A stretch of DNA of 63,467 nt, filler included, from Diploschistes diacapsis (taxonomy: Eukaryota), in the NCBI GenBank assembly GCA_023645945.1. It is 33 parts of 33 records of this genome, joined end to end, with 100 filler letters (N's around TTAATTAATTAA, not from the genome) between each part and the next. Parts side by side here need not be neighbours in the genome. Positions count along the whole stretch, not along the records: positions 13,562 to 33,851 come from JALAIB010000348.1; 32 more parts are not named here. One strand, written 5' to 3'. Positions 361-39,354 of the stretch are shown here, piece by piece; within the stretch, counting starts at the first letter, position 1, and every line of letters starts with the position of its first letter. Both the position numbers and the translations under genes were made by a program. Under the pieces are notes generated by a model that made no database searches, was not told the DNA's origin, and saw only the letters and a list, made by a program, of their open reading frames with translations.

Positions 361-387
361 TATGGATTTTAATAAAATATTAATTTT

Positions 388-9175: not shown

Positions 9176-10884
9176 ATTATCGGCCCGATGATTCATCGAA
9201 GGATGTAATATAAATATTAAATAAAAAGAATCTTAAGTCGTAGGATAATGATATCTTCGTTTATTTTTTATAATTATCGTTTGGTCGACCATATATACCG
9301 ATTCGGATTTTTTAATTCGTTCTTTTATTAAGTCTGTTTTCGGTTAAAAAAAATTATTACAAGATACTTCCGAAATCCGTTAAGTACATAAAATATATTN
9401 NNNNNNNNNNNNNNNNNNNNNNNNNNNNNNNNNNNNNNNNNNNTTAATTAATTAANNNNNNNNNNNNNNNNNNNNNNNNNNNNNNNNNNNNNNNNNNNNA
9501 TCCAATTTTTAACGTTAAATTAAATATTCGAAGACCTTTAAAAACTAATTTAAACGAAAAAGTAGCGTACGCGTTTCGTATTTTAAAAAAAATTATAAGT
9601 AAATAAAAGTACCTTCGAAAGAAAGTTCTCATCGTTAATAATCGGAAATATTTAAATTACATACTTTTCGACGAATGCGGGAACTTCGGATACGATTACG
9701 CAAAATGATTCGGGAGTATCACCTACTTCCCACCCCGTTCATATAAATCTCGTAAGGCTGATAATTAATTTACATACACGCTAAGTTAGGTCCCATATAA
9801 ATTTATATATGTATTTTTTTAAGTCCTTTAATATTTATATCACGTAATAACATTTTTTATTATTAAAATTCTTTTTTTTCTATATATTTTAGAGCTTTTT
9901 TTAAAGTTTAATATATAATTTATTAAATTATTTAAATAATTAATATTTAAATAACCTTTTTACGACATTATTAGCTATTAATTAGCTCTGCGCGTTTTAT
10001 ATTTTATTCTTTTTTTTTTTTTCTTTCTTTTATTCTTGTATTAATATCTTTATAGATCTTATGGCCGCCGTTTCTCTCGTCGCGTTCCTCGTCGCCGTTT
10101 TTTAATCTTTTGTCGTCGTTATTATTATTATCGCTACCGCTTTTTCTTCTATTTTAATTTTAATAGCTTTTCGTTTCCGTCGTTTATTTATCGTAATAAA
10201 ATTCGTTTCTTACGGTTGCGACGCGTTCTTTCGATTCGATTATCGTGCGCGCCTCGTCGTTAACGTTAATTTTATAAACGGGAACGCTACGTCGTCGCCG
10301 TTAAAAAAAAAGATAGGATATTTTAAATAACTGGCTACGGAGGAAGAAATGAGGTAATAAAGGGTTAAGAAAGGATAAAGAAAGGGGGGAAGGAGGAAGG
10401 GAAGAAGGGGATTAAAGGAGGGGAAAAGGTGGAGGAAAGGCGGTGCTAGGCGGCGTTTTAAAAGGCAAAAAGGCTTGCCGCGGCGGCGTGGATCCCCCCT
10501 AAAGCGACGACGAAGGTAAAAAACCTTTGAAAGAAGAGGAAAAAACGGCGAGAGAGATATAAGAACTGGATAAAAGATGTAATAACTGCTTTTTAAAAAT
10601 TATATTAGGGCGTAAAGAGCTTTAAAGCCTTAATTTAATTAATTTTAATCTTTTACGACATTTCTATATAAAAATTTAGTCTTTTATATAATTATTTAAA
10701 CGGATTTAATCCGCGTTTATTTTAAAATTAACTTTTTATGATCTATATAGATANNNNNNNNNNNNNNNNNNNNNNNNNNNNNNNNNNNNNNNNNNNNTTA
10801 ATTAATTAANNNNNNNNNNNNNNNNNNNNNNNNNNNNNNNNNNNNNNNNNNNNCCTCCCTCCAGACCCCTCTTACTCCCCAAAG

Positions 10885-12107
10885 ATGGTCGCACTCTCCA
10901 TGGCCGACGGCTACGCTCGCGTCTCGGGCCAACCCCAATGCGTCATCGTCCACGTCGACGTCGGCACGCAGGGCCTCGGCGCCGCCGTCCACAACGCCTC
11001 GACGGGCCGGTGCCCCGTGCTCATCTTCGCCGGTCTGTCCCCCTACACCCAGGAAGGCGAGGCCCGCGGCTCCCGCACCGAGTACATCCAATGGATCCAG
11101 GACGTGCCGGACCAGAAGCAGATCGTGGCCCAGTACTGCCGGTACACGGCGGAGATCAAGACGGGCAAGAACGTTAAGCAGATGGTGTTCCGCGCGCTGC
11201 AGTTTGCCATGAGCGAGCCGCAGGGCCCGGTGTATCTGTACGGAGCGCGGGAGGCGATGGAGGAGGAGCTGACTCCGTATGCGCCGAAGGTGCAGCGGTT
11301 TGGCGCCGTGGGACCGGCCGCGCTGCCGGAGGAAGGGGTGAGGCAGGTCGCGGAGGCGCTGGTGCATGCGAGCAACCCGCTCGTGATAGCGGGGTACTCA
11401 GGCCGGAATCCGGCCTCCGTGCCGGAGCTGGTGAAGCTGGCCGATACCGTCAAGGGCCTGCGCGTGCTCGAGACGGGCGGGTCCGACATGTGCTTTCCCC
11501 AGACCCACCGCGCCTCGCTGGGCCTCCGGTACGGCGTCGACCGGTCCATCCCCGACGCCGACGTCGTGCTCGTGCTCCACTGCGACGTGCCCTGGATACC
11601 CACCCACAACAAACCGAATCCCTCCGCCACCGTCTTCCACGTCGACTCCGACCCGCTCAAGCAGCAGATGCCCGTCTTCTACATCGAGGCCGAGGGCCGC
11701 TGGAAAGCCGACGCGGAGACGGCGCTGCGGCAGATAAACCACCACGTCTCCGCCTCCGCCTCCCTCCGCAAGACCCTGTCGTCGTCCACCTTCTCCTCGC
11801 GCTGGACCAGCCTCGGCGAAGCCCACTCGGCCCGCCTGGCCTCCATCGAGGAAGCCGCCGCTCCCGCCCCCGACGGCAGCCTCTCCGTCTCGCAGCTCGC
11901 GGCCGCCGTGCGCCGCGCCTGTCCGCCCGACACCATCTTCGCCGTCGAGGCCGTGACCAGCGCGCTGCTCGTCACGGACCAGCTCCTGCCAGAGATCCCG
12001 GGCAGCTACCTGAACTGCGGCGGCGGCGGCCTGGGCTGGTCCGGCGGCGGAGCGCTGGGGATCAAACTGGCATCCGAGGCGAAGGAGGGGAGGGGGCGGG
12101 GGAGGTT
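10885..12107 (+). CDS. Thiamine-pyrophosphate-dependent enzyme, acetolactate synthase-like family (internal exon; gene truncated at both ends)
   Basis: MADGYAR, HVDVGTQG..AVHNA, PQGPVYL and GGGLGWSGGGALG motifs; preceded by an intron 3' end (CTTAC...AAAG). Confidence 0.9.
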
Positions 12108-12207
12108 NNNNNNNNNNNNNNNNNNNNNNNNNNNNNNNNNNNNNNNNNNNNTTAATTAATTAANNNNNNNNNNNNNNNNNNNNNNNNNNNNNNNNNNNNN
12201 NNNNNNN

Positions 12208-12806
12208 TATTTAAAACAATCAAGCGTAAATATATCGTATTTATATAAAGTTTTAAAATAGATTATTTATATAATACTTTTTTAAAGATATCGGAAAGTA
12301 AAACGCGTTATCTTTCTTAATCGCTATATTTATAGATTAAAACAAAACGGACGAGAATAGTTCGAGTATATTTCCGTTAAATTAAAAGAAATAAATTTCA
12401 TTTCGGCGAACTTCGATCCCTACGTCTTTATTTATGTGGATTCTTCTTACGAAAGATTTTATATATTTTTATATGTAAACGATCTTGTGTTAATTGGACG
12501 TTTAAAGAAACTTATGGATTAAATAAAGCAATAGATCAAAAAAAATTTCGTCTATAAAGAATTAAAAAAGACGAGATATATCTTAGGATTTGAAATCCAT
12601 TATAAAAAGGATTATATTACGTTATTATAGAAGATATACGCAGATCGAGTAATCGAACGGTTTTATATAAAGAACTCTCGTATAATTATTATTCTTTTAT
12701 TTCCGAATATTATTATATCTCGAGTTTTATTTAATTTAGAATCTAAAGACTAGTCACTATATTAACAATATATGGGATCGTTAAGTTATCTTTTAATCGA
12801 GATAAG
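12208..12806 (+). mobile_element. Ty1/Copia reverse transcriptase remnant
   Basis: IYRLKQNGRE*...FDPYVF...LYVNDL, a RIP-altered form of LYGLKQSGREW / DPCVF / YVDD. Confidence 0.85.
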
Positions 12807-13014
12807 TGTAGTAGCTATTGAGCTACTAGGGGTGTCGCTTGCTCCTGCCTTCGCCGGCGTCGCTCGTGATGCCATGGGTGATGATGCCATTGGGCATCCA
12901 CCCACTTAGCAGCTATTGTAGTAGCTATAAAGGCTCGCTGCCCACCTAGCTTTTAGCAATCCATCTTCTATATATACTATAATTTGAGTTTATACTGACA
13001 ATTTGGTAGCAACG
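12807..13014 (+). mobile_element. LTR family D 5' LTR (12807-13000) plus PBS TGGTAGCAACG (13004-13014)
   Basis: Termini TGTAG...TGACA; near-identical inverted copy at 45271-45463; PBS begins with TGG, typical of tRNA 3'-end priming. Confidence 0.8.
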
Positions 13015-13984
13015 ATTGTTTAATTAATTCCTAGAACGTCTATTAGCTCCAGTAGCAAGGTCCTTATCTGCACTAGTCCCTTGTTCGGATCAGAGTCACT
13101 GCAAAGCTTAGTTTTTGTAGTACTTCCTTATCTGTAGTAACCAGAGCTTTTTCTATATTCTGTTTAGTCCCTTTCTATATTCTTTAATTAGGTTATAATT
13201 AAGATCTAATTTCATATATCGACCTCGTCCTTCGGTTCTTTTATAATTAATTAGAATTTAATTTAAAGTTATTAACTATCACTTAAGGTCTACGAAGATA
13301 CTTTAATTAAGATTTTTTGGATCTGTTTATATCTAAAAGAGACGAATATCGAATATAAATTACTTATTAGTTTAGAGCAAGCCCTGACCGAAGAGCAGCT
13401 TTCTAGACCACTTATTTCGATAAGAAGTCTCTATATCAGAATAATTAACCAAGAAATAGCGNNNNNNNNNNNNNNNNNNNNNNNNNNNNNNNNNNNNNNN
13501 NNNNNTTAATTAATTAANNNNNNNNNNNNNNNNNNNNNNNNNNNNNNNNNNNNNNNNNNNNGTTTTGGGGAGGTGATATAGGGAGGTAGATGATAAAGTA
13601 TCGGAGTGAAAGAGGGCGGTTGTTTGGGGTGGCCCGTGAATGTAAATTGTTGTTGTTGCTGGTGGGCGTTTTGGCAGGCGTTCCGAGTACATATTTTACA
13701 TCTGTTGGATAAAGACTAGGAACAGATTGATCACCTTGATATGTAGTCATGCCTTTTTGGGGAGCTATGAGGATGGAATTGCGAGGTTTGAAGGACCAGC
13801 ATATGCTCTATCTGCCAAGTATCTAGTTCTTACAGTATTCCAAAAAAAAGCGTTACAACCGCACTCAGCATAAGCGTGGTATGCCTCACGATATTTCGTA
13901 CAACCAAAACAATACAGCAGACCCGCAAGCCTCGCCTCCCTCCAACCCATAGTCTCGTATATCTCGTCGCAAGTCATACTCCCG

Positions 13985-16900
13985 TCACCACAGGTGCTCG
14001 GTCATTTGCGTAATCGCCAACCTCGTCCTCTCCCTCACGTCTTGCTCGGCATCATTTTCCAGCTCTTGCAACTTTTTCAGCACCCCCAGCTTTCGTAGCT
14101 CGTTCGCCCGGTTTTTTGAGTGTATTTTGTCCGCCTGGTCGCCCGTCCACGTCAGATTGATCACCGTCCAGACACAGCACACCCTCACGTTTGAATTACG
14201 GTGGTTGAACAGGGGAACCATAAGCCTCAGCAGTTCTGGCTTCGCGATCAGCAACTGCCGGTGCTTGGGGTGGCTACCGGCCAGGTGCACCAGGATGTAA
14301 CAGACGGCAGTAACGATCTCTGTGGGGGGCGGAACGAGCTTAGGGGGACCTCCGCCGGGGCGACGATTGTTGGAATATACGTCGACACTCTTAGGCTTGA
14401 GGAGGTTGGTGAGCATCTCGAACACCTTGTCCTGACCGAGGTTCTCGAAGAGAAATTCGACCATCTCATATGCGCCAGGCCCACAGATCAGGTTACGCAC
14501 CAATGCAAGGCCCTGTTCCTGAATCGCGAGATCGTCCTGCGCACTTTGGGCCGCCTGATCATTCACGTCGTTCATTTTTAAACACGGGTCGTGCTGTGGG
14601 GAGTAGTCGGTGGCCTGCACCGTAGCGAAACGACTGCCCCTGTGCCGTTCTGAACGACTCAGGGGACCCACACTGTCTACCATGTTCACTTCGTCGTCGT
14701 CATCGTCGTCTTGATTAAGGCTGGAATTGGCGGATCTGTCATCCATAGCGTTTAGCAAGTCAACCTGCTCACCCGCAGCATTAGAGGTTCCCAATATCGG
14801 CGTATTGCCGCGCTCCGCCGACCCGCGACGGGAATCAGTACCGCTTTCTTCTGTTCCATTGCAGATGATCTGCTTCAGCCATCCCACGCCAAGCTCCGTT
14901 ACGCATTCCTGCTTCAATTGGATCGAGGCTGATAGCACCAAGTGTTTGAGAGCCCACACGGCATTTAATCGAAGTTTGTGGTTGACCGAATGAGCATGCT
15001 GACACAGGACCTTGAGGACACCTTCCTCGATTATACCCTGCGGAGCAATTAACTATCGGTAAATGTTGCGTCGATCGACAATCATAGAAACTTACCTCTC
15101 GCATAGAACTAAACTCTAGGATTATATTGATGACGGCGGATGTAGCCGCAATCTTCACCTCAAGTTCGGGATGCTTCAACAACTCGTAGATCGGTTTTGC
15201 CAAGCCGGCATCGACCAGTATAGTCCTTAAAGAGCCGACTGATCTTGACAAAGCTCTCGCAGTAGTGCATGCTGCAATTAAAATGGAGGTTGGATTTGCC
15301 AGCCTTTGCTCGCTCTCTCTTGGTTCTTTGGTGTCTTCTTCGCTTCCGTCCGGCTGGTCATGGCGCTTCAAAGACGCTATGATGAACGGAACCACGCCGT
15401 TGTCGATAATCGCTTTCCTGTACTCGTCCTTGGTGGTTGACATCGCGGCAAGCGCAGTCAATGCAGCTTCACGCATTTGTAAAGTATGGTACACAACGGG
15501 TTGAAGCCCGCTCGGACCAAGTCTAGAGGAACCTGAAGGACCGGTATTCTCGCTGACCGCATTTGGCTCTTCAGGCTTCCACATTGGTGTTGTGCTAGAA
15601 GCCGGTATTGGATCGTATGACTGCTTTAGCATTTGTGAGAGCTTCTTTACGATGTCCGCATCTGCTGCAGCCCTTTGAAAGTCTTCGTTTTCAGCAATCA
15701 GAAGAGCTAGTATTCGCGGTGTCTTCTGTGCCATGGTCCGGGCGGCGATCTTCGCAGGGCTTGTATCGTGCAACATCTCTTCGTTATCTAATGGCTTGAC
15801 ATCTCTGTCAAGCATGCCCACGAGAATGGGAACCAGCAGCATGGAAAGACTCTTCTCTCGGCGTGTACTAATACAGTCGGCTCTATATAGTAAAGCGATT
15901 AGCCATATGGCCATGAGCCGTGTCATACCAGTCCTAATTCTAACGACCTCAAGAAGCCATGGAACCAAGGGTGTTTCGTCATCGTCCCTAGGCAAGCCTT
16001 CCATGGAAGTAGCTTCAGGTCCAAAGCCAGATCTGTACGAGCATTGCTGCTTTCCCCATGTTGCAAAGCTGCTCATTGGAGGATAGCTTGAGACTTTCCC
16101 GGTACCGTGGAGCGCTAATGGCGGCAAGATAGTCTCTAGAGAGGCATTGGAATGTTCCAGCTTGCCATTCTGCGCAGGCGGTACCCTCCAAGAATACGGG
16201 TCTTTGTCGATAGGAAAGATACTGGCGAAAGCGGCAGAACAGCAAAACCAGCTGGCTCGTATTTTAGAGTCTTGGATGATTGTGCACACGGCCTGCAGGA
16301 TAGTTTCCAAGCGAGCCTTCGGTCCTGCTGGTTGAATTCCTGTGTTTGCAATAGGCACGGATCCAGATATCGCACTGAAGGCTGGACTAACAATATGAGA
16401 TGCAAGTCGAGTGGCTAGCGCGTCAAGGATGCCACAAAAGCGAAGTTGCTTTCTACGGGACTCGGTATTGCATGTTTTGGAGATGAGAGATGCGGTGAGG
16501 GATATTTGCTCTTGAATGATGGGTCGGGCGGAAACTTGCTCTAGGATCTGACAGAGGCTCGACAGATGTTGGTCGGTGTATAGCACGCGCAAGAACGCAT
16601 CTTCATCATTGTGTATGCGTTGATCGCCAAGCGCGACAGCATCCGCAATAGCATTCAGAGACCACAAAGCTGCTAAGACAAGAGAAGGTGCGGATTCCGC
16701 CGGGCAGAGGATATCGAGTAATGAAGGATAGATCTGGCCGGCTCGTAGAGGAGAAAGAAACGAAGGACCGCCTAGAGTCTGTCTTTAGTAACAGCATTGC
16801 GCTCTTTAAGGACCTCCCATACCGTGTGCGAGACTTCCCACGATGATGATGGCTTGCCGTCGTGCTTCCTCCTCGTCGGGCCGCGACGCTGTTGACATAC

Positions 16901-17126: not shown

Positions 17127-17824
17127 AACAGGGAAGGCTACAGCATGTGCGGTCGTCCTAACGGCAGTATGTTGACGATATATGATGCTCAGATATGCCG
17201 AGCAGAAAGGGCGCGAGAGAGCCGATTTATAATGGTAGCGGCATCTTGGCTTCTGGAACAGCAAAACCGCCGTACGAAGAATAGTTCACCTTCTTTCGGA
17301 AGCCTGAACTCAAGGTAAAGAGTGTAGATACCCACTGACATGAAATGTAAGTTCGGACTGGAGGGATACCTCGGGACTTTATTCTGGCATTATTTGTATC
17401 ATGTATCATTAGTTAAAATTAGAGGTGATTAAGACAGCTCGGGCCGAAGACCTCCCCGTCTGTTCTATCTTCGGTATAATTGCTATCAATCATATAGACA
17501 ACTGGAAGTCTATCTACGATAACTTTACATGGTTAAAGCATCAATGACAGTATGAGCGATAGCCAGCTCGTTAATCGTTCCAACATGATGTATCATTCAA
17601 ACGTGTTCTAATTGAGCTGTATAACCAGCTGTGTCCAGGAATGTTGCCCTGGAATAGGTAGAAATCAACTGGACGCTCAATCTCAACCCTCTCATATCAC
17701 TGAGAGACATCTCCTCCTCCGTCCATATAGGAGGACTCTGCCCGCTTGCATCAGCAACAAGAGTATTTTATTAACCCTAATACTCATCCACTATTTAGAG
17801 GGATAAGGCGGATTCTATCCACCT

Positions 17825-18559
17825 TCATCCCATCTCAGCCCCCGTCCTCTCCCTGAATAGTTCCTTTTCACCAGTATCCTCTTCCAGAGGCCTTTCCCTT
17901 GTTGTCAGATCCGCTCCCAGTACCTTCCCGTAATCCTCAAATCTCCTTTTCTCCGCAGTTTTCTTCCTCGCCTCCTCCCTTGCTGTGGCGCTGTTTCTTG
18001 TATATGAGTCCTTTATCGGCCTACTGCTCCCTCTCTCCAGCTCTATCTCTTTCGCGGCTTGCAGTTCCTCTTCAGTATACCCGCCACCGCGCTCGCTAAA
18101 ATTCGACCGTTCCTCAGCTCCAATGAACGATGCCGTGTCTCAAGGGGTTAAATCTGACCCCCTTCTATGGAATGGGCTCAACATCTCGATGCACAAGTCC
18201 TGGTGAGAGAAACGACGAGATGCCGCAGTCAGCTATGTCTAGACCAAGAGGGGAAGATGTAGCTACAGAGGTGGCGCTATTGACATAGCCAGAGGTTGGT
18301 TTGGATAAAGGTTCCTTGCCTTCCCCTTACCTTCGTCTGAAGAGCTGGTATCAAGATGAGAGCTGGAGGATCTCGGACGGCTGGAGATGGAGGATCCGAT
18401 CGAGAGGTCACCTGTGGTGGGATGCTTGAATAGTTTAGTGAGTTTTGTGGATGGGATTCAGCCTATTTGGAAAGACAAAGATGATAAAGACGATATGCTC
18501 ACTACACCTCCGCCCTGTCCGATTGCCTTGGGTTTAGGCTTCTCTTGGCCGCTCGGCAT
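17825..18559 (-). CDS. Possible small multi-exon orphan gene
   Basis: ATG at 18559 (MPSGQEKPKPKAIGQGG), donors GTGAGC and GTAAGG, and a charged ~95-codon ATG-less terminal frame ending at TGA 17825. The last acceptor is uncertain. Confidence 0.35.
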
Positions 18560-20693
18560 GACGACAAGATGTAAGAAACCAGTGGGAGAGCGGAATTATG
18601 AGATTGAGACGTAAAGCCTGAGAGAGAAAGTGGTGTTGAATGTGTGACTGCCTTGAGAGGAAACGAGACGGGGAAGACTCAAGGCCTCACTCGATCGAAA
18701 GAAACAAATGATAGCTGATCATGCTCTTCTCGACACCAGAAGAGCATGGGGAAAGCGACGAGCAAAAGGCTTAAATAGAGGTCAAAATTTCGAATGTGCT
18801 ATCCTGGTAGGTCAAGCTATACAGTCAGTTGTCTATTTTCGATTCGATTGGTTGAGTCGGAACGGTACCTTATTCGGTTAGATATCTACGATACACTATC
18901 TTACCCGGTGCCTCGACTCATTTGCGTGAAACGAGGTAAGACAGATCAAGAGAGAGGTGAGAAGGGTATCCATGCCACCAAGGTCGTGGTCATTGTAAGG
19001 ATAGGTAGGTCCCATCATCACACGGTGTCACCCACGATGTTTTGACAGGACCTTCGGTGATCAAGAGCTCCGCTCGCGGCTAGCTAAGTTGACAAGCACT
19101 GCGACTCCCATTTGATCCAGGGTTCAGCTTATCACGTTTCTTGAAGTCTGTCTTGCCCTTCAATTTCTTGATGGGCTACATGACCTTGCAATCATATTTC
19201 TTAGTCATCAATAGCGAAAGAAAACCACTGCACTTCTTTACTCACAAACATGCATACTCGTTACAACTCAGACGAAGGCGAAAATAGAGTAGTTCGAACT
19301 TACATTGTTCTCTGTTCTACGTCCTCGCTTTAAGAAACGTAGGGACCCTCCTATTCTTCCCTTTTAGCACACTTTTTGCCTTCCTTACACGCGCCGGCAC
19401 CTTCATGGCACTGTTGAGCGAGCTCTCCTTATATCTTAGCACATGATTCTTGTCTGTACCTTCTTTCAAGTAGTTAATTCTTGGCTCTTGAACTTTCATT
19501 ATAGCTTCAAGAGCTTGATCCTCAGGCTCTGTCTCTCAACAGCAACGTACAACCGCTGTTCTCGAGCCTCTGCGCCTTACTTGTAGTATCAATCGGGGTT
19601 CCCCATTGGCCTGGTATGCCGGCTTTGAAATTCTGTGGCTACCGGCACAATATCAAGGTGCTATCATTTGAATACGTCAATGATGCTAGCAAGACTCCGT
19701 GGCTGGCGCCATGCCGATCTGCAAAGTCTCGTGGTTGCAGCGCTGTTTTCGGTCTGAGCTGCTGAAGTTTGATCGAGGGACTATGATGCATGAATCAAAA
19801 AGGTTTGGTGATACGACCTCAGGAGCTGGCAGCGAAGCGAGGGAGCTCTGGAGTTTGATCCAATGCCTTGGAATTTGACGGTTCTATCTGTTTTATAAGA
19901 TAAGCCTTGTAGTTATTATGGCGACCTCAGCCATTTCATGGGAGACTTAAGAACAGCACAAACTTGATCAATGGGGATGTGATGTGCTGGTCGTAAAGTC
20001 TGCTGTTTGCGGCGCTTTTAGGAAAAGGGGGGATGAAGCCCTTCCAACATTATAATATATGAACGAAAGAAAAAGTTTGAGAGGAGTAATGCATTCTAAC
20101 GGTATGCTGGGTAAACCTACCTGTCGATAGAGAAAGATGCATTGTGGTTGCGCCCTGACGGTGAACCCATAAACATACCATTATACTGTTGAGATTATCT
20201 TTTCACAGAACCATGACCCCCCAGAATAGTTGTTGTAGCAGCCATGAGCAAAGAATTTCTCATGACGCTCAAGCGAATGAATTGCGGAGAGCAAATCATT
20301 GAAAGCTCATGCAGCTAGTTGGCAAAGACTTCTCCCATAGATATCAACACCACTAAATCGTCATCAGAGAGTAGAGGCTTTTCAGCACTCAATTACACTC
20401 GCTCGCGGGAACAACCATTGTTGAAGAACAATGGCTTTCATGAGTAACAGCGGCATTGTCTCTTTCAACAATGGTCCTTGTAATCCCTTTGTCACATTCT
20501 TATCGTCCATTCAGCCTATTGCCTGTCTTAGACGACAACAAATTTTATAAGTACTTGCTAGTTAAGGTGGTCTTCAATCATGACCCAGCATCTACTCTTT
20601 GCCATCCTCACCCATGCTAGAGATATTCTAGACACTCACCACAAGCTCCCTCAGAGACGCACTGCAAATCCACTTCTTCGAAACCAATATAGC

Positions 20694-20999
20694 ATGTGCC
20701 AGGTTTCACGCATGGTCTATACATGCTCCCACGCCGGCACCCGGATATGCTTGGCCTCTTGCGAGGCAAGTTTCAATTTTTCCAAAGCCCGCTGCAACGT
20801 ACGAAACGAAGAAGTGATGGAGTGGTTCGAGCGTAATGAGCGGTGCTCCCGATGCCGCTGGAGCAACAAGCCGCAAGGCACTCCGGAGATGGAGCAGAAA
20901 AACACTTTCAACCCGGATGTGCACACGCATAAGGACCACAAGGCGTTGAAGAGGAGGCTGAAGCAGAAATCAGAGGGATATGCTTGGAAGCGTAGGTAA
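20694..20999 (+). CDS. Small Cys/His-rich hypothetical protein, 101 aa
   Basis: MCQVSRMVYTCSH...C...C...C...CSRC pattern; TTTATAAG about 150 nt upstream; an alternative ATG at 20580. Confidence 0.55.
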   Translation: MCQVSRMVYTCSHAGTRICLASCEASFNFSKARCNVRNEEVMEWFERNERCSRCRWSNKPQGTPEMEQKNTFNPDVHTHKDHKALKRRLKQKSEGYAWKRR

Positions 21000-21295
21000 G
21001 CGTCCACTTTGACCAATTAATAAACAGGGTAGTTTGTTAGAGTAGATTGAAATCGATTTCATCGCAGATTCAAACCTTTGGAAATCGTCATCGGTCGGCA
21101 GTGTCCTCAACTGCTCCTTATTTGTAGAGCAAGCTCACAGGCGAGACATATGATATTCGTGATAAGATTTGGTGCAGCAAGAAGAGCTAATACAGCATAA
21201 AAAGATGAAGTGTGACATAAAGCGAGCAGAATCATGTCCTCTTCATGGCAAGCAGGGACTTAAGATTTTGAGCGTCAAGCACATCAGATCCAGAA

Positions 21296-23534
21296 TCACT
21301 GAGCCGCCCGTCTCCCATTGGTTGACATCAAGGTGATCTTCTTATTCTTTTTCTTCTTGCTAGAAGTTGGTGCCGGAGCCTGCTCTCTCAGAGATGCAGT
21401 TTGTACTTGAGAGATCAGGTGCTCTTCTTCCCGTAACAGGTCTTGCTCCCACCCTTGAAGCCACCCATCGCTCTCTTGCGCTTCAGGAGCAAACGTTGCT
21501 TGAAGTGGTGGAGACTCGCTTGTAGGCACAGCCGCCGTTCCCCATACTGTTTTGGGGCCGCTAGGACTAGTGGAAGGGGATGCAAGAGAAGCAAACCCCG
21601 TGCGCTTACGCGACCACGGCGGCGACGCGGCTGCTGTAAGATCGATAGGCAGGGATTCCTCGACAAGATTTGCAGGTCCAGCCTCGCCGTTGTTGTCCAG
21701 TTCGGGCTGGATACTTGGCCGACGACGCCTGATAGCAGCCCATTTTTTATCGTCTTCTTCCTTTTCAGCTCGAAGCCTTTCCTTCTCTTCTCTCGCCTCC
21801 TTGTCCTTATTTCTTTTCCGTCGCCGCTCTAGTTCGGTTGAAAAACTCTGAATGATGCTTGGGGGAACAATATCAGTCCAGTCGCATTCCAGAAACGCTA
21901 CTTCACATCCTCGAGGTAAATGTGCAAGGTATTTGGAGCGTTTCCGGAGGTCATCGTCAACAATGTGGCCAGTCGAGACTCTCTCTACGCGCGGGAGGAC
22001 CGCACTGGGAAATAACGAGTAGTCATCGAATGCGGTCTTTAAAATTCTGACATCCAGTGGGGCAAGGTAATAATGCAAGAGTGCCTGATAAAAGAAAAAT
22101 GTGGTGGTTGCGGGCGTCGAAGACACAGTGGCAGACCTCACAGGTCTCCTCAGAAGTGATTCCTCACGGAAGCTTACAGGTGATGTTGGTGTACCACGTG
22201 TGTTCCGATCTTCGTTCGGAGAGCTTGGGAAGGCAGGTGCATCCTTCTCTGTTGATCTTTGGCTAATTGTCCGTCCCGATTTCGTAGCTTGCGATATTCT
22301 GTAGAAATCTGGAAGATCATTCTCTTCGGTGAAAGTGATCGGGTCTCGAACAGGTCGCTTCTGCTCTGACTTGACAGAAACTTTCAATGGTGGGTTTCCA
22401 ATTCCTTCCAATCTTTCTTGAGCGTTGATAATCGCTGCAATAGCCTTCCGTGTCCATTGCGTCTCTTCGCCAAACATTAGCTCATCTTCCCTTTCTTGGA
22501 CTTTCAGATGGTTGATCTCTTCGTCAAATTGTGATCGCATGTAGTCCTCACTACCTTTCATTACGCGGGCATAGTCCATCACTTCGGCCGCAAAGTACCA
22601 AGGTAGTTCGATCTTGAGGTTCGAAAGCTCGGAGCACTCCCTGGGCAGAGCTAAAGGGCTATCTGCATCACGTTTCATGAGTCGCAGAACGACGTCGCTG
22701 CCTTCGCGTGGAGGCTCTCCCTCCTGGCCCACAAACCAACGTACAGGTCGGGCCTCGGACATGAAGATGCTATCCCAGCATATCGGACATTTTTTCCAAC
22801 GCGCCTTCTTCTCTGGCATCGGGGTTGCATCATCGGTTGAGTGCATATAGCGTATAAGACACGGTAGGCAGAATATGTGACCGCACTTTGCCATTCGCGG
22901 AGCTACCGGAGGAGAAAGGCAGATCGGACAGCTTGCAGCCTGCGATTGAGCCGAGGCAAGAATTTGCAATACATCTTTCCATTCTAAATGATCATCGACA
23001 GAATGAAGGCGACTATAGTCTCCCTTGGGGTGGATAATGAAGCGATAATTTGCGTGGATGTATCTGGCATGGTAAGAACCGACTATAATCATTGCGAATA
23101 TAGGCTATCTACCTTGCTTTGTCCACTGCATTGTAACCCCAGTTATATGACCTGCGTCCTCCAGAGGACCGGTTGTCGTGGATGTGGGTAAATTGATTTG
23201 TTGGTCTGGGCGGTAAAGAAAAGTTCATCAAGTGCGTGATCGAGGTCTGGCCCTTTCGACTGCTCGTCGATCTAATTGCAGCTGCTTCTGACATGTCTTC
23301 ATAGCCAAGCTTAGGACGCCTGGAGTCCTTATTCTGCTTTCGACGCGACTGGTTGTTTCTAGGACTGGATATGGCTGCTCTGGAGGAGGCCGCTGCTCCA
23401 AAACTAGAGCCGCTCCGGCGCTGACGATCAGCACTTGGGAACGTCGAGGTAGCCTGCGATTGCGAGGGTGAAGGAAGCTGCGTAAAGATGCTCGTGCCTT
23501 TGGACAATGGCATAGAAGGGGCATTAGATAACAT
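21296..23534 (-). CDS. MAG2: RING-finger E3 ubiquitin ligase, Mag2/RNF10 homologue, about 729 aa
   Basis: Exons 23534-23113 and 23063-21296 with a 49-nt intron. C3HC4 RING CPICL.PPVAPRMAKCGHIFCLPC...WKKCPIC, ITHLMNF, YIHANYRF, FYQA, RKRSKYLAHLP.GCEV.FLECD and a C-terminal KKKKNKKITLMST tail. Confidence 0.92.
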
Positions 23535-24012
23535 TGTGGTGGGGTTAGGCCGGAAAGTAGGAACTGGGCGAGCAGGAGCTCCCAAAACTTCGCGTACCTT
23601 AAACACGAGAGTTCTGGAGGTGGACTCAGGATATTCAATACTGCTCCGAAAACCAATATATAGAAGTCTGAAAGAATATACACCTGAGGGTGAGCCGTCA
23701 TTCGAGCTGAAGCGATATAGATGCGAGTCATCCATCACGATAGAGGTTGCTTACTAAGTGAGCAGCGCTTGGACCAACCGGGAAATAAGTGAGTTCAAAA
23801 TTCCGACTTCAGACTTTCTCGCGCTGCCCATTGCTGGCTCAAGCCTAATACCTCAGCTCCTCAATCAGAGGAGCCAACAAGCAATTCCGATCTAGACCAA
23901 TCTTCTACAACCACTCTGTTAATACTGAGATAATCCTGCTTCCTCGTCTATAACCCTACAGATGCAGTTCGCCTTCTGAGGAGGTCCTTGGCCCTCCTCC
24001 GGCGCTGCGACA
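23535..24012. promoter_or_regulatory. Compact divergent intergenic region, a probable bidirectional promoter
   Basis: Only 478 bp separate the opposing start codons of MAG2 and UBP3, so it must hold both promoters and both leaders. Confidence 0.7.
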
Positions 24013-26828
24013 ATGATGAACGGCTCGCAGCCTGCGATACCCATGTATCCAGGGCGCGGACAACATGATATACAATACAACCCTCCTCATCATGCGCCAT
24101 ATCCACAGCAATATCCTGGGCAGCACCAGCAGCACTTTAGGCAGCCATACTACCAGCAGCCTCCTCAACAATGGGCATACTATCCGGGCATGCAAGCGAT
24201 GCCGCGCCCGTACTCACATCAGTACCAGCCCATGATGAACGCGCCATATCCCATGCCCCAGGCTCCTCAGTCGATGTCGCCACGTCCTCCTCAGCACATG
24301 TCTCCTCATCACCCTTCGATGAGACCACACCAAGCAATCTACTCACCCCCACCTCTAGAACGGCCAATGCATACTCTACCGCCCGCACCGTCATCTCGAC
24401 CTTCACCACCGCCTGCTCCTCTGCCCCAAACTTCACGCACGCCATACTATCCTCCGGTATGTTCTATTTTGGTATGCTTGCCGTTGGTCTAACGTTCCTT
24501 AGCTTCCCTGGTACTCCGTTCCAGAATCCGAGTTTCCAATCACGCCATCAAGACGCAAGAAACGAAAGCCACCACCGCAGTCTTCTAACCTCCCAGTTGA
24601 ACTTCCAGAAAGGGCACTTGCAAGATCATCCGAACCTAGACTCGAGATGGACACGGCTATGGAGCCACAGTCGGGGCCCATGACTAGCTCCCCTACGTCT
24701 TCCGTACCTCTTACGAATCTCGAAGTCGCAACATCTGAAACCCCCGCCACATCACATGCGCCATCTGAAGCTGATTCAACCCAACCCACCACACCATCTT
24801 CTGCCATTCCCCCACGGCTGCCGGTATCCAATGGTGCGCCACGGTCAGCTTCAAAGGTAGCCCCTATCGTGCCTGCTATTCCACATATACCATCGCTTTC
24901 TCGGCCAACAAAAGAAGATTCTATTTCTTCGAGGCCAGACTCGAGTAAGGAAATGGAATTGGAGACTGAGAAGCATGGTATCACGGAGACTCCAAAAGAT
25001 AGCGGCGAAGAGGCCTCGAAAGAAGATTCGAATGAGTCTACGGAAACACCACAGCCATCATCGCCTCAGCCCAAGGCGGTGCCAAAGTCATGGGCAGACT
25101 TGGTTCGCTCAAAAGCACCACCCATGACAGCAAATGCTGCCACATCTCCCGACACGGATGAAGCTCAGCTCAATGGCAGCCATCTCAAAGGCAGTCCATT
25201 ATCTGAAGTCCTTGGTAAGTTCACGGTCAGATCCAACGAAAGCGACAGCAAAATCGCGTTCACTAAGCCTCGAGGACTCGTAAACACGGGAAATATGTGC
25301 TACATGAACTCTGTAAGCACTTCGCTCACTGTGCTTACGTTTGATAGTCTGACAAAGCCAGATTCTACAGGTTCTCTTGTTTTGTGTACCTTTTTATGAT
25401 CTTCTTGACCTCGTCAGCCGGAATGCGACTCATAGTTTCAAAAGCGAAACGCCCATGATTGATGCTATGTAAGATGCACTATTACCCTAGGAGATATCAA
25501 GGCTAATGCTCTTTTCGTTCAGGGTTCTGTTTATACGCGAATTCTCAGTTATCGACGCGGCTGCGTCTATTGAGCAATTGCGCATGCGGTTGAAAGATAA
25601 TGAATTAGAAGAGTATGGGGAAGCCTTCATACCAGACTTTGTTTATGAAATTATCCGCAAATTGCCTAGGTTTTCTTCAATGAGGGTATGTATTTGTCTG
25701 GCCATTTCTTTTAGGTCATGCGCTAACTATCGATAGCGAGGGCATCAGCAGGATGCAGAGGAGTTTTTAGGTTTTCTGCTTGAAGAAATGCACGAAGAAT
25801 GCGTTCGGGCTATGAAAGGCCTCGGCCCTCCTGCAATGGACAGTGCGATTCCTGACGAACTTTTATTGAATGAGGAGACGGCTCCCTCAGAGGACGGGGG
25901 CTGGCTTGAGGTTGGCCCAAAGCAAAAGGCTTCCATTACACGATCTTCGGGATTTGTCACGACCGAGTCTCCTATCACAAAGATCTTTGGTGGAAAATTG
26001 CGGTCAGAATTCAGGGTGCCAGGCGCAAAGAACTCCGTTACTCTTGAGCCGTACCAGTCTCTTCAGCTTGATATTGGGTCCCCCCACACAAACAACATCA
26101 CCGACGCCTTGAAAGGCCTAGCTCGTTCTGAGGTGCTTCACGGTGATTTTAATTCCTCACGTGGTCCCAACGTCGGAGCGACCAAGCAGGTCTTTTTCGA
26201 AACAGTCCCACCTGTTCTTATACTGCATCTTAAGAGATTTCAGTATGATAACACGGGTGGGACACAAAAGATCTGGAAAAAGGTTGGATATCCTCTTGAC
26301 CTTGAAATCCCGAAAGAGGTCTTTCCGCCGCACAAACGTGGCGGTCTTGCGGCACATGGTGGTCTACCGAAATATCGGTTGATCGGGGTTGTCTACCATC
26401 ACGGCAAGAGTGCCAGTGGCGGTCACTACACAGTGGACGTCAGGCGCCAGGAAGGTCGGGAGTGGGTTCGGTTTGATGATACGATCATCCGTCGAGTGCG
26501 GAGCGAGGATGTTGCCGAGGGTGGGAGTGAGGAAGATCCCAAAGTTCTTGCTGCCGCACTAGAGCAACACAAACGCGATCAAAGCGTTGGCGGGAACATC
26601 TTCGACCAAGTACGCGAAGAGCAGGAGGAAACTTCCGACAATCAGAAAGGCTGGAGCCACGTCAATGGCACAAACCACGCCAGCTCGACCACGAAAAAAT
26701 GGTCGGGAGTTGTCAACGGTACGGTGACACCGACGTCATCTTCCGGAAAGCACACGCCAATAGGAAGGTATTGGGCGAAAGACAACAAAGTGGCCTATAT
26801 TCTGATATACCAGAAAATGGGCTACTAA
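24013..26828 (+). CDS. UBP3: Ubiquitin-specific protease, Ubp3/USP10 homologue, about 871 aa
   Basis: Exons 24013-24456, 24503-25312, 25362-25468, 25523-25685 and 25737-26828 give 2616 nt in frame. P/Q-rich N-terminus, KSWADL, Cys box PRGLVNTGNMCYMNSILQ, GHQQDAEEFL, LHLKRF and His box YHHGKSASGGHYT. Confidence 0.93.
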
Positions 26829-35999: not shown

Positions 36000-36555
36000 A
36001 ACTCTTTAGCGAGCTTGTACTATATTGCGCGATAATTATCGCTATAAAGTAGATATCCTTTTCTTAAGCTAGAACGGCGGCCTCGTTATTCGTTAGATCG
36101 TTATTGGTAAGTGCGAGACGATCTTTCATAACCTAGGGAATATATTATAATTTTTATTATTAGTTTTTTTTGCTTGTCGATTAGCCTGTTGAGCCATTTG
36201 TCGAAGTTGATATTGACGGATAAAACATTCTCGATTTATATATTAATGGTATCGATAATGATTTTGTAACTAAACGATAATGCTATAAATAATTATTAGA
36301 AAAGAATCTTTAGGGCGTATTCGGTTCGTTTATACGACAACTTCTTTAAAAGTTTTATTAAATATATCCAAGCTTTTTGAATAATAGTACCGTTCTTGAA
36401 TTTATAGTTAGTAAACTCGAGGTTCAGTTGTCGGCGTTCAGGTTCAATTATCGTTTAATAATTTATCTACAAAGAATCTTATTTGGCTTTTATAATAAAT
36501 AAATCACGAAAACGTTTTTGGTCGATCTCTATCGTATAAATCATAATTTAATAGT
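36000..36555 (-). mobile_element. Probable Copia gag remnant
   Basis: Degenerate AK*DSL*.KY...EFTNYKF....IQKAW...LFIALS.SY...IDTI; boundaries approximate. Confidence 0.45.
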
Positions 36556-36655
36556 NNNNNNNNNNNNNNNNNNNNNNNNNNNNNNNNNNNNNNNNNNNNT
36601 TAATTAATTAANNNNNNNNNNNNNNNNNNNNNNNNNNNNNNNNNNNNNNNNNNNN

Positions 36656-37539
36656 ATGTCCGTGTCCGTGCATTTATCGAAATATTTTAAATTATTTTTT
36701 TAATTTTAATAATTCTAGAATTATTATGTTTATTTCTTACGTTTTTATTTTTTTAAAAATTTTTCATCGCGGTGTTTCGATGGATTTATTATAATATTTC
36801 GATGGATCTATTATAATATAATGTCCGTGTTAGTATTAATGTTTTAAAAATTATAATTATAATATCCGTGTTACACCGGGGGGCCGCAAGGTTCTCGATT
36901 TGCACCGGGGGTTAAGAAAAGCAAAAAGCTCAATAGCGATTCAGGCAAGAACCGGTGTAAACGGGTTGAACAAATGTTTTAAAAAATGGAACGTTCTCGG
37001 AATCGAATCGTTAAGATGCCGTTGTGGCGGCGGATTAAAAACGGTCCGATATATAGCCATTTTCTATATCCTGTATAACAGGGAAGAATTGAGATATTAA
37101 GGAAGATTAGACTGAAAATAATTAACGATAGACCCGTAAGAAATCCAAATTCTTTCCGACTGGATTATATATACAGGCCGCTTAATTTAGTATAATCTCG
37201 CGTTTTCTCTACTTTACGATGTCTCGATCAGTTAAACAACAACATTTCAACGAGATATTATAGACGGCGTAGGAACGGATGGGAACCGAATCGTCAGTAG
37301 GGCGGTAAACGCCGAATTTTAGGGTTTTAACATCCTAAAGGTTTTTTCCTTAGAGAAGACGTATAGTTAGTCCTACATGCCCCCCGAGGGATAGATTAGA
37401 GTAAGATTAAATAATAATAATAATAATAATATCCGTGTTCGTGCGTTTATTACAGTATAATATCCGTATTAATATCCGTATTTTAAAACTTTAGCTGTAG
37501 TGTCCGTGGCAGTGTCTGTGGCACGAAACGGCCAGCCTA
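36656..37539. mobile_element. hAT-type MITE copy (right part), interrupted by a LINE
   Basis: GTGTCCGTG repeats and the terminus ACGGCCAGCCTA, as at 49895-49906. Confidence 0.8.
36873..37425 (+). mobile_element. 5'-truncated Tad1-like LINE insertion
   Basis: LHRGLRKAKSSIAIQARTG..GL...CRCG (ORF2 C-terminal CCHC region), a (TAA)n tail and flanking direct repeat ATAATATCCGTGTT. Confidence 0.8.
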
Positions 37540-37613
37540 CTCGTAGGTACGTTTCACGTTATAATAATTTAATCATTTATAATCGTAAATCAATCGTAAT
37601 AATTCCGATCTAA

Positions 37614-37860
37614 TGTTATGATCTCTATCTATACAAGGTATACACAAGTAGAGTCAAGGTGGGTTTGGTCTCTGTTAGAAGTGGAGTGCAAGCAGGAGAA
37701 GAAGGTAAAGCAGTTACAGGTCTTAGACTATCTTTAAAAAGAAGGTTCTTTAAAGATAAAAATAACGAATATAAATTGATCCCGAGTAATAACTAAGGAT
37801 ATTTATAAAAGTAAACACGTTCTAAATTCGTAGAAATTATAATAACGTTTTTATATAATT
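37614..37860 (-). mobile_element. Family A LTR, partial
   Basis: Begins TGTTATGATCTCTATCT. Confidence 0.8.
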
Positions 37861-38005
37861 TAAAACGATAATGAATCACCGATAATAAAGTTATCGTGAT
37901 AAAACNNNNNNNNNNNNNNNNNNNNNNNNNNNNNNNNNNNNNNNNNNNNTTAATTAATTAANNNNNNNNNNNNNNNNNNNNNNNNNNNNNNNNNNNNNNN
38001 NNNNN

Positions 38006-38542
38006 GAAATATTAGGCCATATAAAGATCGTAATTATTTTAAATCGCAAAAATAGACCTCGTACGAAACAATTCGATAATCGAAAATAAGTTTTTATTAG
38101 CTAAACTATTTACGCGGACGATTATACGCTAAATACTAATTCTTAAAACCGAGTTTAAGATATTTCCTACTACGAATAAGGTACTTGGTAAACGAAAAAA
38201 AGTTAAAAAAACTCGCGTTATAAACTAAAGAATTATTTAACGTATTAAAAATAATCGCATTACGGTCTTTAAAAATCAAAATTCGTATAAAAAAAACTAA
38301 TATATCTAAAAATAAAGATCGTACGAAAGAAATCGGATTACACGTACGACGTTATAACAAGTATAATCAATCCGGATATAATACGCGAATTTATAAAATA
38401 GAATTAATAGCTTTTAAGAAAAATATTAATAATTAATATAATGAATTATCGTAAGAATTGATTGCGTAAATATAATTACAACTCGTACGAATCGAGAAGG
38501 ATATCCGTTCGCTATAAGTGTCCGCTCGCTATACATATACGT
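38006..38542 (+). mobile_element. Fot1/pogo family H, internally deleted 3' end
   Basis: A QPGNREWV-like segment is joined directly to the C-terminal RRC..C..PGHN..C-like segment, then the TIR and TA. Confidence 0.75.
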
Positions 38543-39105: not shown

Positions 39106-39254
39106 ACGTGTTTCACGGTCATCTGGGCCACCCCCCCATCTGGTCCACCTCATATTGCGATATTCACCATTCTTTCGGTTTTTCTCGATACTGGCCGCTT
39201 CGAATTAAAACGACTCGATATTATTAAAATCGGATATTAACGACTATCTATATG
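39106..39254. mobile_element. Fot1/pogo family G terminus
   Basis: TA followed by ACGTGTTTCACGGTCATCTGGGCCACC...; same end as 47650-47795, inverted. Confidence 0.8.
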
Positions 39255-39354
39255 NNNNNNNNNNNNNNNNNNNNNNNNNNNNNNNNNNNNNNNNNNNNTT
39301 AATTAATTAANNNNNNNNNNNNNNNNNNNNNNNNNNNNNNNNNNNNNNNNNNNN

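Follow-up and report, generated by a model that had tools for sequence, protein, structure and literature searches.

The window, a 63,467-nucleotide stretch of Diploschistes diacapsis DNA joined end to end from parts of 33 records of assembly GCA_023645945.1, contains a RING gene of the Mag2/RNF10 family on the minus strand and a Ubp3/USP10-type protease gene on the plus strand. Both genes are intact and lie head-to-head, with their start codons 478 bp apart. The RING gene, the only one of Mag2/RNF10 type in the window, encodes a product of 729 amino acids (CDS join(23534..23113, 23063..21296)), and the protease gene one of 871 amino acids (CDS join(24013..24456, 24503..25312, 25362..25468, 25523..25685, 25737..26828)). 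The initial annotation had placed two divergent genes on one contig with a 478-bp gap, and our models reproduce these coordinates and this spacer. The features of the locus are as follows:

21296..23063, minus strand: RING gene exon 2, with the stop codon at 21296-21298; encodes the C3HC4 RING as well as the conserved C-terminal part of the protein (open reading frame and Pfam).
23064..23112, minus strand: RING gene intron of 49 nt, GT..AG; the splice ...AVDKA-R / YIHANYRF agrees with the alignment of intron-free homologues.
23113..23534, minus strand: first exon of the RING gene; its ATG is at 23534-23532 (alignment and homologue N-termini).
23535..24012, no strand: spacer between the two ATGs, 478 bp from the sequence; putative bidirectional promoter region.
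23725..23730, minus strand: TGACTC element, oriented as the RING gene and 196 nt 5' of the RING ATG; a recurrent upstream 6-mer.
24013..24456, plus strand: protease exon 1, Pro/Gln-rich N-terminus (open reading frame; N-terminus aligns with P0122, P0121, and the N-terminal motif of named homologues).
24503..25312, plus strand: protease exon 2, with the LPWYS motif at its start and the catalytic Cys box at its end (Pfam UCH match at the Cys box).
25362..25468, plus strand: protease exon 3 (tblastn with P0121, P0122, and P0124; frame-consistent splice model).
25523..25685, plus strand: protease exon 4, from enumerated splice models as the sole stop-free combination that fits the homologues across the junctions.
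25737..26828, plus strand: protease exon 5, which carries the stop codon and encodes the larger part of the USP catalytic domain with its His box (Pfam UCH, E 2.7e-26).

The start of the RING gene at 23534 agrees with the N-termini of 11 named homologues. In an N-terminal profile composed of 10 named homologues and the window protein, model position 1 falls on the RING-gene methionine with 143.9 bits; as the window sequence is itself part of this model, independent support comes from the homologue alignment and the N-termini.

The C3HC4 RING lies in the N-terminal half of the protein and occupies residues 55-105 of the large exon. Matches to Pfam zf-C3HC4 and to a further seven RING models fall within residues 53-109, and every Cys/His position is invariant in an alignment of 12 sequences. 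Over this alignment, the window protein is 56-59% identical to its 11 named homologues. A family profile built from the window protein and 11 homologues was searched against 1.84 billion representatives; it matches P8B7.23 of S. pombe at 443 bits, a “RING finger protein 10” from a chytrid at 276 bits, and a Saccharomycopsis “Mag2 protein” at 265 bits. BLASTP of the window protein yields 32% over 530 amino acids with P8B7.23 (O94271; E 2e-84) and 27% over 549 amino acids with the Saccharomycopsis protein (E 8e-50). The similarity to both is collinear and nearly full-length, including a conserved box preceding the RING as well as the long C-terminal region. Further, one Atlas neighbor of the RING protein is annotated as “alkylbase DNA N-glycosylase”, an earlier name of MAG2. 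With these profile and BLASTP matches, membership in the Mag2/RNF10 family, as first proposed for this gene, is well supported at the level of sequence, and a role as uS3/uS5 ligase is predicted.

The translated protease has an intact Cys box and an intact His box. Exon 5 is 65-75% identical to at least 120 longer homologues, some of them named UBP3 or USP10. Among these homologues listed, the specific enzyme names, all automatic annotations, are UBP3, “hydrolase 3”, or “hydrolase 10”, and no other USP number occurs. Solved domains of USP7, USP8, USP15, and similar enzymes reach only ~45-62 bits, and no close relative of the protease or of the RING protein was found in the PDB. The Pro/Gln-rich N-terminal region of ~400 amino acids carries a conserved LPW[YL]S..P..RRR motif, and its N-terminus fits a motif conserved at the N-termini of homologues named UBP3/USP10. 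Exon 2 had no sequence match in the PDB at E up to 10. We conjecture that the LPW[YL]S..P..RRR motif may relate to the Bre5/G3BP-binding segment. The Pfam UCH domain and the UBP3- and USP10-named closest relatives are in line with the original assignment, so that membership of the protease in the Ubp3/USP10 family is likewise well supported as a homology-based prediction.

The arrangement of the two genes was followed in a metagenome survey of 80 loci, grouped in 50 clusters. Of the 30 metagenome-contig clusters whose upstream flank extends over 4 kb or more, 24 have the protease gene 5' of the RING gene in divergent orientation. When evidence from short flanks is added, the pair is present in 28 and absent in 8 clusters (28/36 informative clusters), and all 28 positive clusters are strictly head-to-head. 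In 18 of the 50 clusters, the sequence 5' of the RING gene contains the LPW[YL]S motif. Moreover, both genes carry consecutive NCBI locus tags in all eight species with ordinal tags in both homologue lists, namely Xylographa soralifera, X. trunciseda, Lambiella insularis, Squamulea squamosa, Candelaria pacifica, Candelina submexicana, Cirrosporium novae-zelandiae, and Thelocarpon impressellum. Because the same divergent arrangement recurs in 24/30 clusters and 8/8 tagged species, the adjacency is no chance event. Nor is it limited to one lineage, a possibility that the initial annotation had named as evidence against its own reading: pair-bearing clusters cover five classes, with Pezizomycetes (RING protein of L076, with 89% identity to its Terfezia claveryi counterpart), Eurotiomycetes (in Eurotiales, proteases of L049 and L068, 91% identical to Thermoascus and 77% to Penicillium, respectively), Leotiomycetes, Lecanoromycetes, and Pleosporomycetidae-like Dothideomycetes. 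The divergent arrangement is ancestral to Pezizomycotina and has been kept in most sampled lineages, with at least two losses of the pair within the group.

Beyond Pezizomycotina, a remnant of the linkage exists in S. pombe, where ubp3 (SPBP8B7.21), erd2 (SPBP8B7.22), and the RING orthologue (SPBP8B7.23) follow one another. Here, erd2 separates ubp3 from SPBP8B7.23 and runs in the same direction as the latter, whereas the window pair is adjacent and divergent. By the naming rule for the “c” suffix, we take S. pombe ubp3 to lie on the same strand as erd2 and SPBP8B7.23 and hence not to be divergent. In S. cerevisiae, MAG2 adjoins YLR426W without linkage to UBP3, which we assume to reside on a different chromosome, whereas the window genes are linked. 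The human RNF10 and USP10 genes are presumably unlinked as well. Human RNF10 and USP10 (with G3BP1), which regulate the ubiquitin marks of uS3 and uS5 on 40S subunits in iRQC, belong to the same two enzyme families as the window proteins, for which such activity is predicted; while transcriptional coupling has not been described for the human genes, the window pair has a common spacer. Analogously, yeast Mag2, which acts in 18S non-functional rRNA decay, and Ubp3, which acts in deubiquitination of Rps3/uS3 and eS7 and in ribophagy, represent families orthologous to the window pair.

The genes around the pair provide a background for its retention. By our reading of the locus map, 18 of 29 informative clusters retain linkage to an unrelated sterol-reductase gene, ERG4/ERG24, which lies downstream of the protease in 5 of them and of the RING gene in the other 13. 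In these 18 clusters the pair is intact wherever the RING-upstream side is informative, except in L015, L025, and L032 of the N-clade; L012 was left unscored in this comparison. The RING-protease pair moves as a unit, as it survived rearrangements that shifted ERG4/ERG24 to the other side. The other neighbors of the window pair are missing from all 80 loci, bar one gene in one cluster. In a Dothideomycetidae-like clade in which the pair is broken, the RING gene forms a new divergent pair with a dienelactone-hydrolase (DLH) gene in all seven informative clusters, with RING proteins down to 56-59% identical, approximately the values found between classes. A DLH gene also recurs near the locus in Lecanoromycetes, Eurotiomycetes, and Dothideomycetes. 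The retention relative to other divergent pairs, on which the initial annotation had made its reading depend, thus gives a divided result: the pair (28/36) exceeds ERG4/ERG24 (18/29), but the RING-DLH pair is equally persistent in its clade. Conservation by itself does not prove a functional module.

ATG-to-ATG spacers measure 451-747 bp in eight other clusters and ~1740 bp in the Pezizomycete L076, and LPW-motif distances of 1151-2076 nt give an estimate of 0.6-1.5 kb for Leotiomycetes. Given this range from 451 to ~1740 bp, a tight shared promoter cannot be a universal feature of the pair. Among the upstream elements, TGACTC(C) is the best conserved, and it sits closer to the RING gene. Of 35 sequences, 22 carry TGACTC in RING-gene sense at −100 to −400 relative to the RING ATG, where it is the top 6-mer (shuffle mean 2.65; antisense 5). 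TGACTC(C) is kept in three clusters without a protease neighbor (L052, L062, and L066), and this persistence after loss of the protease neighbor is consistent with a self-contained RING promoter.

The biochemical relation between the two families is taken from published work, as far as the accessible text of the cited sources extends. Ubiquitin is placed on uS3/uS5 by RNF10/Mag2, and these marks increase when USP10 is lost (PMC10878831); RNF10 and USP10 are described as opposing each other on the same ribosomal lysines (PMC10878831; bioRxiv 10.1101/2021.04.20.440649; PMC12008924). Yeast Mag2 marks uS3/uS5 (PMC12700985), and Ubp3 acts on eS7 (PMC10878831); the title of Jung et al, 2017 (cited via PMC12700985) presents it as a counterweight to mono-ubiquitination of Rps3. 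In the accessible passages on yeast, the ligase set against Ubp3 is Hel2 or Not4 rather than Mag2. Conserved divergent fungal gene pairs tend toward functional relatedness and close spacing (Davila Lopez et al, 2010; PMC2871058), and Table 1 of that study also contains many without a marked functional link. Its pairs, such as RAD16/RAD7 and ribosomal protein pairs, resemble the window pair in being head-to-head with a short spacer, and the likeness extends to conservation across Pezizomycotina and partly Taphrinomycotina and to partners acting in one pathway. In contrast, the partners in the window are predicted antagonists, a writer and an eraser, and not subunits or consecutive enzymes. The RNF10-UBP3 pair is absent from the accessible main text and supplement text of PMC2871058. 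Overall, the literature searched held no description of an RNF10-UBP3 linkage, in agreement with the initial annotation, which knew of none.

The window genes are probably the single-copy-type orthologues of the 40S ubiquitin ligase Mag2/RNF10 and the deubiquitinase Ubp3/USP10, and their linkage is real, ancient, and apparently undescribed. We regard as evenly poised the proposal that the pair is held together via its common promoter spacer, which would couple ligase and protease transcription and stabilize their ratio; the shared-promoter mechanism is plausible but unproven. According to this proposal, the compact spacer would carry promoter elements serving both genes, or could not be split without harming one of them. 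Ligase and protease would consequently be transcribed in a coupled manner, and the coupling would stabilize the ratio of writer to eraser by which the extent of uS3/uS5 ubiquitination is set.

It is also possible, although we lean against it, that the genes have been neighbors since one early-ascomycete event and that breaks in a short divergent spacer are purged as promoter-damaging. Selection for coupled expression would then play no part, and the functional relation of the partners would be a coincidence. The replacement RING-DLH pair, kept in 7/7 clusters of a clade lacking the protease neighbor at RING identities as low as 56-59%, behaves in this manner, and the unrelated ERG4/ERG24 (18/29) and the DLH gene recurring nearby in three classes extend such persistence to further genes. 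TGACTC moreover remains with the RING gene once the pair is broken, the repeated losses of the pair mark both genes as evidently dispensable as neighbors, and many conserved divergent pairs have no functional link marked in the accessible Table 1 of PMC2871058. Against such passive retention, the one conserved divergent partner of the uS3/uS5 ligase belongs to the very deubiquitinase family known to reverse its marks, a coincidence whose probability we roughly put at one or two per ~10,000 genes for each neighbor position, or ~1% if any ribosome-quality-control gene counts. Furthermore, the pair was kept more often than ERG4/ERG24 (28/36 versus 18/29) and outlasted the side switch of the latter, and the other neighbors of the window are found in none of the 80 loci, bar one gene in one cluster.

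Improbable in our view is a linkage that was selected without a shared promoter, through a common chromatin or replication domain, co-adapted alleles, or dosage balance, with each gene under a separate promoter. The long spacers of Pezizomycetes (up to ~1.7 kb) and Leotiomycetes (~0.6-1.5 kb), the apparently autonomous RING-proximal motif, and the close yet not divergent genes of S. pombe would fit such a linkage, but pure linkage does not require the strict head-to-head orientation of all 28 positive clusters. Finally, we consider it very improbable that one of the genes is a paralogue instead of the Mag2/RNF10 or Ubp3/USP10 orthologue, which would void the writer-eraser reading: the PDB lacks a close relative of either protein and the names in public records are automatic, but the RING protein is collinear over nearly its full length with S. 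pombe P8B7.23 and Saccharomycotina Mag2 and its profile finds RNF10-, Mag2-, and P8B7.23-named proteins at 265-443 bits, while the protease exon is 65-75% identical to UBP3/USP10-named proteins, with no other USP number among at least 120 listed and the closest solved USP domains at only ~60 bits.

If the two genes are indeed coupled through their common spacer, the stabilized writer:eraser ratio would also stabilize the balance of rescue versus decay for stalled 40S subunits.

On the minus strand of the window, an open reading frame of 598 codons (21296-23092) encodes a C3HC4 RING and is preceded by a second open reading frame in another frame. Alignment with 11 named homologues gives a protein of 729 residues from a start at 23534, equivalent to the methionine at the homologue N-termini. 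The exons of the protease gene were placed by tblastn with three homologues and enumeration of frame-keeping splice sites. These models confirm the divergent pair proposed in the initial annotation, with start codons 478 bp apart.

Predicted gene models of the pair
21296-23534, minus strand: RING gene
23064-23112, minus strand: intron of the RING gene, 49 nt, GT..AG, junction read from the sequence
24013-24456, plus strand: protease gene, exon 1 (871 residues in all)
24503-25312, plus strand: protease gene, exon 2
25362-25468, plus strand: protease gene, exon 3
25523-25685, plus strand: protease gene, exon 4
25737-26828, plus strand: protease gene, exon 5

Protein comparison bears out the families predicted for both products. 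The closest relatives of the RING protein are Pezizomycotina proteins, mostly unnamed, at 53-69% identity (among the 119 matches listed, its own product excluded). A profile of the window protein and the 11 homologues, searched against 1.84 billion representatives, matched 573 proteins at E ≤ 1e-30. Among 20 of its more distant matches, whose names were checked, are S. pombe P8B7.23 (443 bits), a chytrid protein named 'RING finger protein 10' (Geranomyces, 276 bits) and 'Mag2 protein' of Saccharomycopsis (265 bits). A Rhizoctonia protein in one matched cluster is named 'alkylbase DNA N-glycosylase', an obsolete, MAG2-derived name also met in the Atlas search. In pairwise alignment, the window protein is collinear with S. 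pombe P8B7.23 over 530 residues (32% identity, E 2e-84) and with Saccharomycopsis Mag2 over 549 residues (27% identity, E 8e-50); one Leotiomycete homologue is itself annotated as 'putative RING finger protein P8B7.23'. On these profile matches and collinear alignments, the RING gene is accepted as a probable member of the Mag2/RNF10 family.

The protease retains intact catalytic Cys and His boxes, and its N-terminus fits a motif common to named homologues. Exon 5 shares 65-75% identity with at least 120 longer proteins among the matches listed, and all enzyme-specific names among its listed homologues are UBP3, 'hydrolase 3' or 'hydrolase 10'. Domains with solved structure from other USP subfamilies score only about 45-62 bits. 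Searches of PDB sequences with both proteins returned generic RING and USP domains only, and no match for protease exon 2. The homologue names and the weak scores of other USP subfamilies argue for a protease of the Ubp3/USP10 type, and this assignment is likewise accepted.

The linkage extends beyond the lineage of the window, from Pezizomycetes to the leotiomycete classes. Locus tags of the two genes are consecutive in all eight species that have ordinal NCBI tags in both the RING and the protease lists: four Lecanoromycetes, Cirrosporium (class Xylobotryomycetes), Thelocarpon (leotiomyceta incertae sedis), and two others, which we take to be Candelariomycetes. The RING alignment, used to scan metagenomes, gave 202 confirmed matches, of which the best 80 (loci L001-L080) were grouped into 50 clusters at ≥90% nucleotide identity. 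Upstream flank of 4 kb or more is available for 30 clusters, and in 24 of these tblastn with the window protease exons detects a Ubp3-like gene there, on the strand opposite to the RING gene. Among shorter flanks, those of L005, L013, L027 and L044 contain the 5' portion of the protease gene, and another gene occupies the expected place at L025 and L058. Overall, the protease gene is present in 28 clusters and absent in 8, where absent means not found within the locus, with 4.4-8 kb upstream covered; 14 clusters are uninformative. By nearest named relatives, the positives comprise Lecanoromycetes, Eurotiales (L049 protease 91% identical to Thermoascus, L068 77% to Penicillium), Leotiomycetes (RING 70-93% identical to Hyaloscypha or Mollisiaceae), Pleosporomycetidae-like Dothideomycetes (70-79% identity to Lojkania, Zopfia or Lophium), and a Pezizomycete (L076, RING 89% identical to Terfezia claveryi). 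Since these positives span both sides, the pair is older than the split between Pezizomycetes and the leotiomycete classes. The adjacency survey stands without Sordariomycetes, Orbiliomycetes and Basidiomycota, and takes in Saccharomycotina by name only.

The protease gene itself varies in structure. An intron at 24457-24502, immediately ahead of the LPW[YL]S motif, shows up as a stop codon adjoining the motif on its upstream side in the window, L001, L009, L049, L061, L068 and L080, while Pleosporomycetidae-like loci lack it and read PFYPPLPWLS unbroken. Presence or absence of this intron thus differs between classes.

A quick maximum-likelihood tree of RING proteins (61 rows) contains an 11-row clade (SH-aLRT 99) that unites seven of the eight absent clusters and includes no present row; its nearest named relatives are Cryomyces and Myriangium, the latter a member of the Dothideomycetidae. 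In all seven, a dienelactone hydrolase (DLH) gene lies divergently upstream of the RING gene, and RING identity within this clade falls to 56-59%, about equal to between-class values.

Loci with RING and DLH genes head-to-head, Dothideomycetidae-like clade
L003, L015-L017, L025, L032, L058, L062, L066

The eighth absent cluster (L047, L052 and L079) is nested among positive Lecanoromycetes, and its RING gene has genes for an alpha/beta hydrolase and an F-box protein upstream; therefore, at least two independent separations have occurred. The 8-kb upstream flank of the L052 RING gene contains (2646-6075) a fragment of an alpha/beta hydrolase, a pof12-type F-box gene and a zinc-knuckle (zf-CCHC) open reading frame. 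The window RING protein sits on a long terminal branch of the tree (0.87 versus a median of 0.21).

Neighbouring genes serve as controls. The window's thioesterase-like gene, 712-aa open reading frame, FAD monooxygenase and small open reading frame each recur at 0 of the 80 loci, and its HEAT/Arm gene recurs in one cluster only among the 80 loci searched. Flanks were annotated at 15 positive loci, and all loci were then searched for the neighbours found. In 18 of the 29 clusters judged informative, the pair has a linked gene of the ERG4/ERG24 sterol reductase family, and a DLH gene recurs nearby in Lecanoromycetes, Eurotiomycetes and Dothideomycetes. An older microsyntenic block thus surrounds the pair, and the lineage of the window has lost both ERG4/ERG24 and DLH; as other lineages keep these neighbours, the control with the window's own neighbours carries less weight and does not show the pair alone to be conserved.

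Example positions of the older block
L076:128-1359
L049:10365-12083
L020:10419-13494
L068:10678-13845

The Pezizomycete and four Leotiomycete clusters have the reductase gene downstream of the protease gene; Eurotiomycetes, Lecanoromycetes, one Leotiomycete and the clade without a protease neighbour have it downstream of the RING gene. At least twice, either the two genes were inverted together or the reductase gene switched sides. Because the head-to-head arrangement stayed intact through those rearrangements, the junction can be argued to be protected.

Unlike many relatives, in which ERG4/ERG24 occupies the position downstream of the RING gene, the window has about 4 kb there (17300-21295) without an open reading frame of at least 110 codons except 20562-20999, a Cys-rich frame of 139-145 aa with no Pfam match. 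The window as a whole is fungal, with GC-normal gene islands (about 0.47-0.55 GC) alternating with AT-rich stretches that look like repeat-induced point mutation isochores.

AT-rich stretches of the window (GC 0.26-0.33)
1-4000
6001-10000
12001-14000
36001-52000
54001-60000

The spacer between both start codons measures 451-747 bp in the eight clusters where N-terminal profiles place both starts, and about 1740 bp at the Pezizomycete locus L076. Measured from the RING start, the LPW[YL]S motif lies 951 to 2194 nt away across loci, versus 971 in the window, which suggests spacers of 0.45-1.7 kb overall. In a k-mer screen of the spacers, TGACTC and CGCCCCTC alone rise clearly above shuffles. TGACTC, usually TGACTCC, is the top hexamer: 22 of 35 sequences have it in RING-gene sense at 100-400 nt before the RING start (shuffle mean 2.65, antisense count 5).

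TGACTC element
23725-23730, minus-strand sense: TGACTC in the window, with equivalents in 21 loci

CGCCCCTCA frequently lies close to this element; CACGTG occurs in 12 of the 35 sequences, and CCAAT boxes hold no consistent position across the spacers. The TGACTC core resembles a bZIP (Gcn4/CpcA-type) half site, though the next base is never A. TGACTC is kept in three clusters without a protease neighbour (L052, L062 and L066). It is part of the RING promoter at the least, and might or might not act on the protease gene as well. An in-frame ATG at 23733-23735, 201 nt upstream of the RING start, would add 67 residues absent from homologues, and a 5-codon upstream open reading frame (23962-23979) starts 51 nt upstream of the protease ATG. 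Should the conserved N-termini be the true ones, the RING transcript would start between 23535 and about 23733.

We take UBP3 of S. cerevisiae to lie on another chromosome than MAG2, and human RNF10 and USP10 likewise to lie on different chromosomes. In S. pombe, the supplementary tables of PMC2911108 list SPBP8B7.21 as ubp3 (also PMC3032702), SPBP8B7.22 as erd2 and SPBP8B7.23 as a predicted E3 ligase, which by sequence is the probable orthologue of the RING gene. The supplement of PMC2871058 gives erd2 and P8B7.23 as co-directional neighbours, and places MAG2 beside YLR426W in S. cerevisiae. From tag order and this co-directionality, the S. pombe genes are two positions apart and not head-to-head. 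By a rough estimate, chance would bring two genes this close about once in a thousand cases in a genome of about five thousand genes; a remnant of older linkage is likely. The pair dates at least to the Pezizomycotina ancestor, and may go back to the divergence from fission yeasts, in which the two genes remain close.

To our knowledge, it is not known how cells keep 40S ubiquitin ligase and deubiquitinase activities in proportion. According to the review PMC10878831, RNF10/Mag2 ubiquitinates uS3 and uS5, loss of USP10 increases uS3/uS5 ubiquitin, constitutive marking leads to 40S degradation, and eS7 is deubiquitinated by Ubp3 and Otu2. PMC12700985 names RNF10 as the human orthologue of Mag2 and cites a title by which Hel2 and Ubp3 balance Rps3 mono-ubiquitination. 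The yeast accounts in the consulted sections of these two papers do not pair Ubp3, as eraser, with Mag2 marks.

Our leading interpretation, held at about even confidence, is a writer-eraser pair whose compact, at least partly shared control region couples transcription of the two genes. Among fungi, conserved divergent pairs are separated by short spacers and more often combine genes of related function (PMC2871058). The main rival, by which a spacer difficult to break is retained neutrally, remains a serious minority possibility. The initial annotation asked for a comparison with the background retention of divergent pairs, and here the outcome is mixed: the pair persists in 28 of 36 informative clusters (78%) versus 62% for the unrelated ERG4/ERG24 gene, but the RING-DLH pair persists over comparable divergence. 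Since ERG4/ERG24 is nearly as well retained and RING-DLH persists, short divergent spacers are sticky here whatever the partner. Coupled transcription of writer and eraser could also be given a bolder form, which we consider doubtful: an ancient, selected ascomycete cassette in which shared stress- or starvation-responsive elements of the spacer, TGACTCC and CGCCCCTCA, would fix the set-point of uS3/uS5 ubiquitination and so 40S turnover, and in which the neighbourhood would mark Ubp3 as dedicated eraser of Mag2 marks.

Both enzymes, their antagonism, and conserved divergent pairs as a genome feature are known already; the linkage of these two genes is apparently undescribed. As the initial annotation supposed, no description of RNF10/Mag2-USP10/Ubp3 linkage was found in the consulted portions of the literature on these enzymes, nor in the main text and supplement text, the latter perhaps incomplete, of the 2010 gene-order study PMC2871058; a literature search found no Neurospora 'ring-15' paper.

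Opposing ubiquitin ligases and deubiquitinases decide between rescue and destruction of a stalled 40S subunit. This very ligase and protease, kept head-to-head from truffle relatives to lichens and moulds, provide independent evolutionary evidence that they act as a pair, and point to Ubp3 as the natural antagonist and cognate eraser of Mag2 in fungi. If coupling is absent, the locus would be a clean case of short divergent spacers freezing gene order regardless of function. Lineages that keep or lose the junction form a natural experiment, and one spacer may offer a genetic handle on the coupling of writer and eraser.
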